The translations under genes and the position numbers were made by a program. This document shows positions 481 through 2,123 of a stretch of 4,336 nucleotides of DNA, in pieces. Numbering within the stretch: the stretch's first letter is position 1; every line of letters starts with the position of its first letter. The notes under the pieces are model-generated. The model worked only from the letters and a program-made list of their open reading frames with translations, made no database searches and was not told the DNA's origin. Source of the stretch: a virus (taxonomy: Duplodnaviria; Heunggongvirae; Uroviricota; Caudoviricetes); the IMG/VR virus record IMGVR_UViG_3300029043_000145. One strand, written 5' to 3'.

Positions 481-697
481 GCTTCGACATCCTTCGCAAA
501 TCTTATACAAGTAAGATGGAATAAACCGGGGTCAGAGAGGGGGCTGTTCAAAACCTCGCCAACTCTAGAAATACAATTTAGAGAATTAGGGCGAGCCGTC
601 AAGCATTTGACAGGGGACAGGGGGCAGGTATGAATCAAAAATTTGAAGCAGTTAACGCTATTGACAGGAATGTGACAGATGTCGCTGATGCCAACGA

Positions 698-721
698 TAG
701 ATGATAGTTATTTATCATCTA
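698..721. promoter_or_regulatory. Candidate recombination core (attL-like): 8-bp inverted repeats flanking an 8-bp spacer
   Basis: TAGATGAT (698-705) and ATCATCTA (714-721) are perfect reverse complements separated by AGTTATTT. The site lies just upstream of the phased repeats and about 165 bp upstream of int, matching the usual layout of tyrosine-recombinase core sites. Assignment as the crossover site is inference. Confidence 0.35.
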
Positions 722-857
722 GTGTTCGCGGGTGTTCGTGGTAGTGTTTTGTGTGCATTCATCGCTATGATTATAAAGGAAAATTTTGTTTTCCTTGTTC
801 GCTCTTGTTCGTCACGGTTTGCCCTTGTACGATGCACGGTGTAGTCAATGGTGTAGT
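722..857 (+). promoter_or_regulatory. Helically phased direct repeats upstream of int (putative integrase arm-type sites and int promoter region)
   Basis: GTGTTCG at 722-728 and 732-738 (10 bp apart); CTTGTTCG at 794-801 and 804-811 (10 bp apart); related TTGTACG at 825-831; GGTGTAGT at 838-845 and 850-857 (12 bp apart). All are same-strand and AT-rich flanked. P4-family integrases are known to bind direct-repeat arm sites next to the core. Confidence 0.45.
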
Positions 858-884
858 TAATTTTGATGACCGGAAACGCTAAAC

Positions 885-2123
885 ATGAGCAGCGCAATTC
901 ATAGACTTAGCGACACTCTTTTACGAAAATTAAGCGGATCACCAACCACAAAAAACGCCTTTTTTAATGACGGTGGCAATCTTAGCGTAAGACATTCCAC
1001 CAGCGGCCTGTTAACCTGGTATTTCACTTACAGGGCCGGAACTGGTAGGCAGGTATCACCGGAACGTCTGAGACTGGGCAATTATCCCGATCTGAGCCTG
1101 AAAGCAGCCAGGGAAAAAGCAGCACAGTGTCGCGCCTGGCTGGCTGAGGGGAAAAATCCGCGCTATGAGCTTAATCGTGCTGTACAGGATGCGTTAGCCC
1201 CCGTGACAGTTAAGGAAGCGCTCACTTACTGGCTTGAATCGTATGCAAAGGAAAAGCGCACTGACTACGAATCACTGAAAAGCCGGATCAATAAACACAT
1301 AATCAGCCAGATTGGCGCTTTGCCGTTGGAAAAATGCGAGCTACGGCACTGGTTGGCATGTTTTGACCAGATGGCAAAGCGAAGCCCTGTATCTGCCGGA
1401 TTTTTGCTACAGGTATGCAAACAGGCGCTTAAGTACTGCCGAAAACGACGATACGCAATCAGCAACGTTCTTGATGATATGGTTGTCGGTGATGTGGGAA
1501 AAAAAGCAGAAGTGAGCGAGCGCGTACTAACAAATAAGGAGCTTGGGGAATTACTCCGCGCCCTGGATGACAAAATATTCCCGCCATACTACAGCGCCCT
1601 AATTCGCCTCCTGATTGTTTTTGGATGCCGTACCACTGAGCTAAGGCGCTCTGAGGTGCAGGAGTGGGATTTTAAAGAAATGCTCTGGACAGTACCGAAG
1701 GAGCACAGCAAAACGAAGGTCGCCATATTCAGGCCAATACCGGAAAGCATTTTGCCGTTCGTCACGCAACTGGTGGAGCAGAACAGACACACAGGCTTAT
1801 TGCTTGGTGAACTGAAAGGACAATCTTCGGTAGCAGAGTACGGAAGAACAGCGCACAGACGAATTAATCAAGCCCCCTGGACGTTACACGATATCCGGCA
1901 CACATTTACAACCATGCTGAACGATTTAGGCGTGGATCCGCATATTGTCGAGCAGCTTACAGCCCACCAGATGCCAGGGATGCAACGAGTCTATAACCAC
2001 TCCCGCTACCTTGATGCAAAACGTGATGCTCTTAATCTATGGGTAGACCGTCTCGAGCTTCTCCAGAACAATGATGAAAAAATCGTTGTTATGACCCCGC
2101 GAATTTACCCCCAAAATTCTTGA
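885..2123 (+). CDS. int: Tyrosine-type site-specific integrase, P4 family (412 aa)
   Basis: Complete ORF. The N-terminus (FFNDGGNLSVRHSTSGLLTWYFTYR) matches the P4-type arm-binding domain pattern. The C-terminal catalytic domain carries GCRTTELRR (Arg), HDIRHT (His-x-x-Arg) and YNHSRY (candidate catalytic Tyr). Length is typical of CP4-57 IntA / P4 Int relatives. Confidence 0.92.
   Translation: MSSAIHRLSDTLLRKLSGSPTTKNAFFNDGGNLSVRHSTSGLLTWYFTYRAGTGRQVSPERLRLGNYPDLSLKAAREKAAQCRAWLAEGKNPRYELNRAVQDALAPVTVKEALTYWLESYAKEKRTDYESLKSRINKHIISQIGALPLEKCELRHWLACFDQMAKRSPVSAGFLLQVCKQALKYCRKRRYAISNVLDDMVVGDVGKKAEVSERVLTNKELGELLRALDDKIFPPYYSALIRLLIVFGCRTTELRRSEVQEWDFKEMLWTVPKEHSKTKVAIFRPIPESILPFVTQLVEQNRHTGLLLGELKGQSSVAEYGRTAHRRINQAPWTLHDIRHTFTTMLNDLGVDPHIVEQLTAHQMPGMQRVYNHSRYLDAKRDALNLWVDRLELLQNNDEKIVVMTPRIYPQNS

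Follow-up and report, generated by a model that had tools for sequence, protein, structure and literature searches.

An integrase gene beside cspD very probably marks the left end of a PICI at cspD-clpS, a published attachment site of Escherichia coli

The integrase gene that lies beside cspD in this stretch of DNA (4,336 nucleotides, hereafter the window) very probably belongs to a Gram-negative phage-inducible chromosomal island (PICI) of the EcCIIHE3034 type, an element that parasitises phages and of which positions 701-4336 would be the left 3.6 kb of a total of about 10.5-10.8 kb, integrated at the published cspD-clpS site. Because the right end lies beyond the window, we infer the attR and the completeness of this copy from its relatives. 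Table S1 of Fillol-Salom et al. 2018 (ISME J 12:2114; PMC6092414) places EcCIIHE3034 (NC_017628.1, 920272-930825, 10.5 kb) and EcCI18098 at 'cspD-clpS' with the core ATGATAGTTAT, and the same paper gives E. coli eight PICI attC sites, separate from the prophage sites. The attachment genes listed in that table include no tRNA gene, so that a non-tRNA target is normal for this clade of arm-domain integrases. An earlier note on this DNA had taken the site to be an unusual one; it was published in 2018 as one of the eight. The insertion is therefore real but ordinary, with both element and attachment site already known, and the correct annotation is a PICI of the cspD-clpS attachment group rather than an anomalous P4 element, which has little importance beyond that. 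A literature search on integrase satellites at cspD or clpS, on the island names and on yljB returned nothing beyond the 2018 supplement. To that description we add a core that overlaps the yljB stop codon (yljB being absent from the 'cspD-clpS' label), the distances of 91 and 220 bp to the neighbouring genes, an occupancy of about 6.8%, and the repeat architecture of the attachment-site arms.

Comparison with K-12, together with the accessory distribution described below, confirmed the insertion of a mobile element that the earlier note had supposed, and placed it between cspD and clpS. The K-12 locus reads macB, cspD, yljB, clpS, clpA, and nothing is inserted between yljB and clpS. Alignment of the window to this element-free locus, a check that had been proposed, located the left breakpoint at 701-718, immediately beyond yljB. 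The junction is 220 bp from the start of cspD and, in the uninterrupted locus, 91 bp upstream of the clpS ATG. The interval originally assigned to the element (481-2123) was right only in part: element DNA begins at about 701-719, and 481-700 still belongs to the native chromosome, with yljB and the region upstream of cspD. The absence of clpS from the window was correctly noted and has a simple cause, since the window ends at 4336 inside the primase gene of the element, about 6.5 kb before the right end. In full-length relatives, clpS comes after that end. The features of the window are shown in Table 1.

Table 1. Features of the window, with the evidence for each
Feature	Position	Strand	Evidence or remark
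macB 3' end (host flank)	1-184	+	Annotated at the matching position in K-12 and ST361; FtsX C-terminal match
cspD (host)	257-480	-	CSD domain, E 1.5e-26
cspD-yljB intergenic region, native	481-629		One base difference from K-12, at 620
yljB, small host gene of 24 aa	630-704	+	RefSeq in K-12, ST361, IHE3034 and E14; direct reading
attL core ATGATAGTTAT, crossover segment	701-711		attL/attB/attR alignments
Integrase-proximal attachment-site arm	719-884	+	TGTTCG x4 and tandem 12-mers; presumed Int/AlpA arm sites
int, tyrosine recombinase of 412 aa with N-terminal arm-binding domain	885-2123	+	Pfam, ORF list
int-alpA spacer, AT-rich, non-coding, about 420 bp	2124-2542	+	No convincing ORF
alpA, activator/excisionase-type regulator	2543-2752	+	Phage_AlpA, E 3.8e-16; phrog_2790
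Arc/ribbon-helix-helix-like gene of 57 aa, variable zone	2894-3067	-	phrog_228 Arc-like repressor, E 3e-7; Pfam Arc weak
Icd-like gene, cell-division-inhibitor family	3204-3407	+	NCBIfam phage_ICD_like, E 1.4e-19
Gene of 106 aa without assigned function	3400-3720	+	phrog_15327 over the full length, E 1.3e-70
DUF4222 gene directly upstream of primase	3727-4026	+	Pfam DUF4222, E 2e-14
pri-rep (primase/replication), N-terminal 104 codons, cut at window end	4023-4336	+	phrog_864 DNA primase

The crossover was delimited by aligning the left junction of the window, the empty site of K-12 and the right junctions of the full-length relatives in ST361 and IHE3034. At the left junction (attL), ...CAACGATAG is followed by the core ATGATAGTTAT and then by TTATCATCTAGTG...; the empty K-12 site (attB) reads ...CAACGATAG, the core ATGATAGTTAT and CTATCATGTGGAG..., and the attR of IHE3034 reads ...AATGATATAA, the core ATGATAGTTAT and CTATCATGTGGAG.... 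Two bases are diagnostic, position 700 (G in the host, A in the element) and position 712 (C in the host, T in the element). As these differences bracket the exchange, strand exchange is placed within the 11-bp core (701-711). Near-identical elements carry a second copy of this core at their far end, so that the search for a direct repeat at that end, which had also been suggested, succeeded at the attR of the IHE3034 relative. Integration is conservative site-specific recombination at the 11-bp core. Identity with attB runs past the core to 718, and 701-718 form the inverted repeat ATGATA-GTTATT-TATCAT. As ATGATA-GTTATY-TATCAT, this repeat is found in both the chromosome and the element, with the core as its left part. 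The arrangement would fit the layout expected for a tyrosine recombinase, with two inverted binding sites and a short overlap between them. The palindromic core was also considered as a Fur-box, for which the match was judged by eye to be poor.

The insertion target is the stop-codon region of yljB: the TGA (702-704) falls within the att core, and the yljB frame is unaltered by the insertion. Integration at tRNA or tmRNA 3' ends is typical of P4-type integrases without strictly defining them. ARAGORN detected neither a tRNA nor a tmRNA when run on the window, the empty K-12 site and the complete IHE3034 element, and no tRNA fragment lies at the junction, in agreement with the tRNA-free locus first reported. 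In an Rfam scan of the window (E<=1), the sole match was a sub-threshold cspA-thermoregulator on the cspD mRNA.

The int and cspD genes are divergent, with 404 bp between the two ATG codons, close to the 400 bp given at the outset. Pfam assigned Arm-DNA-bind_3 (PF13356) to residues 8-96 of the integrase (E 1.4e-16) and Phage_integrase (PF00589) to residues 214-375 (E 2.7e-18), and direct reading of the sequence showed that the catalytic motifs (RTTELR, HDIRH, VYNH) are kept. Given these two domains, "P4-type" is a fair label for the integrase at the level of domain architecture (arm domain plus catalytic domain). It is not one for the element, which is a PICI-type satellite. The integrase is 24% identical to P4 Int over about 400 residues (BLASTP E 1e-16), a distant similarity at the superfamily level only. 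It is 77% identical to the Int of EcCICFT073 and differs from that of EcCIIHE3034 at a single residue (411/412 identical). A scan of a one-genome-per-species collection with int gave just two matches, of 25% identity, in unrelated MAGs.

A P4-type satellite prophage, dependent on P2 and with a P4-like gene set, could in principle have adopted a non-tRNA site. Such an origin would account for the two-domain architecture that int shares with P4 Int and for their full-length alignment, for the tandem 12-bp arm repeats beside the core, as in P4 attP, and for the AlpA/Vis-type regulator. The relatives' primase also has a P4-family C-terminal domain: the full-length homologue in E14 scored 95.1 bits (E 3.4e-27) against the NCBIfam model, below its curated cut-off of 108.7. 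Against this, Int resembles the integrase of a PICI, EcCICFT073, far more than that of P4 (77% versus 24%); homologues of sid, psu, delta, epsilon, cII and gop are not annotated in the full-length relatives of ST361, IHE3034 and E14; Rfam found no P4 CI-type RNA; and the unidirectional order int-alpA-pri is PICI-like. PICIs and P4 are, moreover, explicitly kept apart in the 2018 paper (PMC6092414). We regard the P4 origin as largely refuted and give it very little probability.

The remaining gene content of the window agrees with a PICI. The int, alpA and primase genes (the last starting at 4023) are all on the plus strand, in an order int, alpA, pri-rep that runs in one direction and is collinear with EcCICFT073. 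Identity to the EcCICFT073 proteins was 59% for AlpA, 35% for the DUF4222 protein, which has the same position there, and 69% for the N-terminus of the primase. The spacer between int and alpA contains a hairpin with an 8-bp stem right after the int stop (2130-2162) and a promoter-like site at 2234-2263; by analogy, it is presumed to be the helper-responsive promoter and control region of alpA.

The rest of the island was read from full-length relatives. The best overall match to the window is the copy in strain E14 (98.7% identity over 93% of 719-4336). The two cores of the IHE3034 element are 10,543 bp apart, and the elements of ST361 and E14 look similar in size by their annotation. In all three islands, int is followed by alpA, small variable genes, an icd-like gene, DUF4222, primase, SSB and a capsid-like gene, and then by a head-decoration gene, a small regulator and the small terminase subunit (terS), all in one direction. 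The annotation of these three islands contains no tail or lysis genes; the window covers 3.6 kb of its own copy. By the 2018 criteria, Gram-negative PICIs are roughly 8-15 kb long and lack tail and lysis genes. A capsid-forming PICI (cf-PICI) was considered and rejected on the relatives' annotation, which has capsid-like, decoration and terS genes and no portal, protease or connector genes.

Phage-like genes such as these (capsid-like, decoration, terS, integrase) would also be expected if the element were what decay has left of a full prophage, a cryptic stub and not a satellite, and the essentially negative transfer tests of the IHE3034 and 18098 islands in 2018 (PMC6092414) point the same way. 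However, the size of about 10.5-10.8 kb, the gene order and the intact frames recur in unrelated strains, the same organisation occurs at another site in CFT073, where it is experimentally mobile, and some 367-369 genomes share the junction type. This recurrence fits an autonomous unit and not random decay, and a remnant of this kind is very improbable.

To determine how often the site is occupied, complete E. coli genomes were searched in two ways. In a megablast of window positions 1-900 against 5,426 genomes, nearly all of which matched up to 718, the match ended at 718 in about 5,050 and continued into int in 369. Of 5,425 genomes, 5,058 matched a 301-bp probe over the K-12 empty site without interruption, and in about 367 the match was split. 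About 6.8% of complete E. coli genomes thus have an occupied cspD-clpS site, and the element is absent from about 93%. The number of split sites agrees with the number of window-type junctions, so that the occupants are essentially always of this kind. PICIs have dedicated attachment sites that prophages do not use, and cspD-clpS, a listed PICI attC, is such a site. The element is accessory, not core. That the int region is core Escherichia DNA and no insertion at all has a negligible chance of being true, as yljB and clpS are uninterrupted in those 5,058 genomes and K-12 has 91 bp and no insert from the core to clpS, and we found no evidence in favour of it.

The DNA flanking the core is rich in repeats. 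TGTTCG occurs in two pairs, at 723, 733, 796 and 806 (6 copies in the window, 2.3 expected), and tandem 12-mers, GGTGTAGTCAAT and GGTGTAGTTAAT, follow at 838-861. At the right end of IHE3034, three TGTTCG copies and the same tandem 12-mers lie 83-95 bp before the attR core. Tandem copies of GGTGTAGTYAAT (x2) and TGTTCG repeats are thus present on both attachment-site arms (723-861 in the window; 11689-11744 in the IHE3034 locus extract), and in a circularised element they would flank the core on both sides. The layout mirrors that of the annotated arm repeats of P4 attP; the sequence differs. Judged from their sequence and placement, the repeats are likely binding sites for the arm domain of the integrase, and perhaps for AlpA. 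The "att core" given for EcCIDI14 in the 2018 table, CGGTGTAGTTAATGGTGTAGTTAATT (PMC6092414), is very similar to the tandem 12-mer GGTGTAGTYAAT; that entry may therefore be an arm repeat and not the true core.

A life cycle can be proposed largely by analogy with EcCICFT073. In that island alpA is activated by a helper phage and not through SOS control; induction and transfer depend on AlpA, excision on Int, and efficient replication and transfer on the primase, with the helper's machinery packaging the island (PMC6092414). In the island considered here, Int recombined the 11-bp ATGATAGTTAT of the island attP with its chromosomal counterpart, which left yljB and the cspD upstream region unchanged. 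The integrated island would stay silent until a helper phage turned on alpA; AlpA would then activate the rightward operon and, together with Int, drive excision. Replication would depend on the primase and packaging on virion proteins of the helper phage, and the capsid-like, decoration and small-terminase genes of the full-length relatives presumably bias packaging. In this scheme we infer the induction, the role of AlpA in excision, the function of the arm repeats and the identity of the helper. Mobilisation was shown for EcCICFT073 only, and induction of the resident prophages with mitomycin C gave no high-frequency transfer of marked IHE3034 and 18098 islands (PMC6092414). From these essentially negative results, the cspD-clpS copies could be defective or could simply be without a helper.

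The earlier note had further suggested that the insertion may displace or rewire the cspD promoter. This found no support: the 220 bp upstream of the cspD ATG, yljB included, all belong to the host and differ from K-12 at one base only (620), and the junction lies much nearer to clpS. A weak promoter-like site for cspD (minus strand, 602-575), found in a consensus scan, and the start of an Rfam cspA-like mRNA alignment at 585 (weak, sub-threshold) are both well inside this segment, so that displacement of the core promoter appears unlikely. The statement that the promoter is intact rests on conservation to 718, the weak consensus match and the start of the Rfam alignment; a literature search for a mapped cspD promoter or CRP sites found nothing usable. 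Any effect on the host would more likely fall on clpS(-clpA) or on the 3' untranslated part of yljB, and in the island the rightward operon ends upstream of clpS, pointing into it. As a side observation, clpA downstream of the island in IHE3034 (from 12269 onward in the locus extract) is frameshifted according to RefSeq and is intact in ST361 and E14; the frameshift is probably unrelated to the island.

The cspD gene of the window has a 1-bp deletion near 317 in a C/G run (GGCCCC in K-12, GGCCC here), the single gap in the K-12 alignment. The resulting frameshift swaps the last 19 residues for 13 unrelated ones. A search of 5,424 complete E. coli genomes found the deletion in none, every best match showing the gap. 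Either this is a sequencing error, or the CspD toxin gene has suffered a loss-of-function mutation private to this copy. The island splits the yljB-clpS unit at the yljB stop codon. We consider it improbable that carriage or excision of the island alters the expression of yljB or clpS-clpA, with a consequent host phenotype, and that, separately, the frameshift reflects a real loss of CspD. An effect on clpS-clpA, if true, would touch the ClpAP adaptor/N-degron pathway, and neither such an effect nor loss of CspD has been described for this attachment site.

Among known systems, P4 integrates at a tRNA-Leu gene. P4 and the cspD-clpS islands have in common an arm-domain tyrosine integrase, a regulator of the AlpA/Vis type, a primase domain of the P4 family and a length of about 11 kb, and in both of them tandem 12-bp arm repeats flank the core on either side, whereas the sid, psu, delta, epsilon and cI genes of P4 are lacking in the relatives' annotation and the genome organisation differs. 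EcCIIHE3034 is 99.5% identical in DNA to the window over 1-2871, and its left-end repeats and alpA are the same. In contrast, the segment at 2872-3153, which holds the Arc-like gene in the window, takes the place of a BRO-N fragment and a YlcI/YnfO gene in IHE3034, and to the right of 2871 only the icd-like region (93% identical) reached blastn E<=1e-5. A module appears to have been exchanged here, in the variable zone that separates alpA from the icd-like gene. EcCICFT073, the model Gram-negative PICI, whose helpers are lambda, phi80 and a resident CFT073 prophage, is attached at a different site (ycfD/roxA-phoQ, core GGACATATTT) and is without terS, which the cspD-clpS islands have (PMC6092414). 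It shares with them the order int, alpA, small minus-strand gene(s), icd-like gene, DUF4222, primase, SSB, capsid-like gene and decoration gene.
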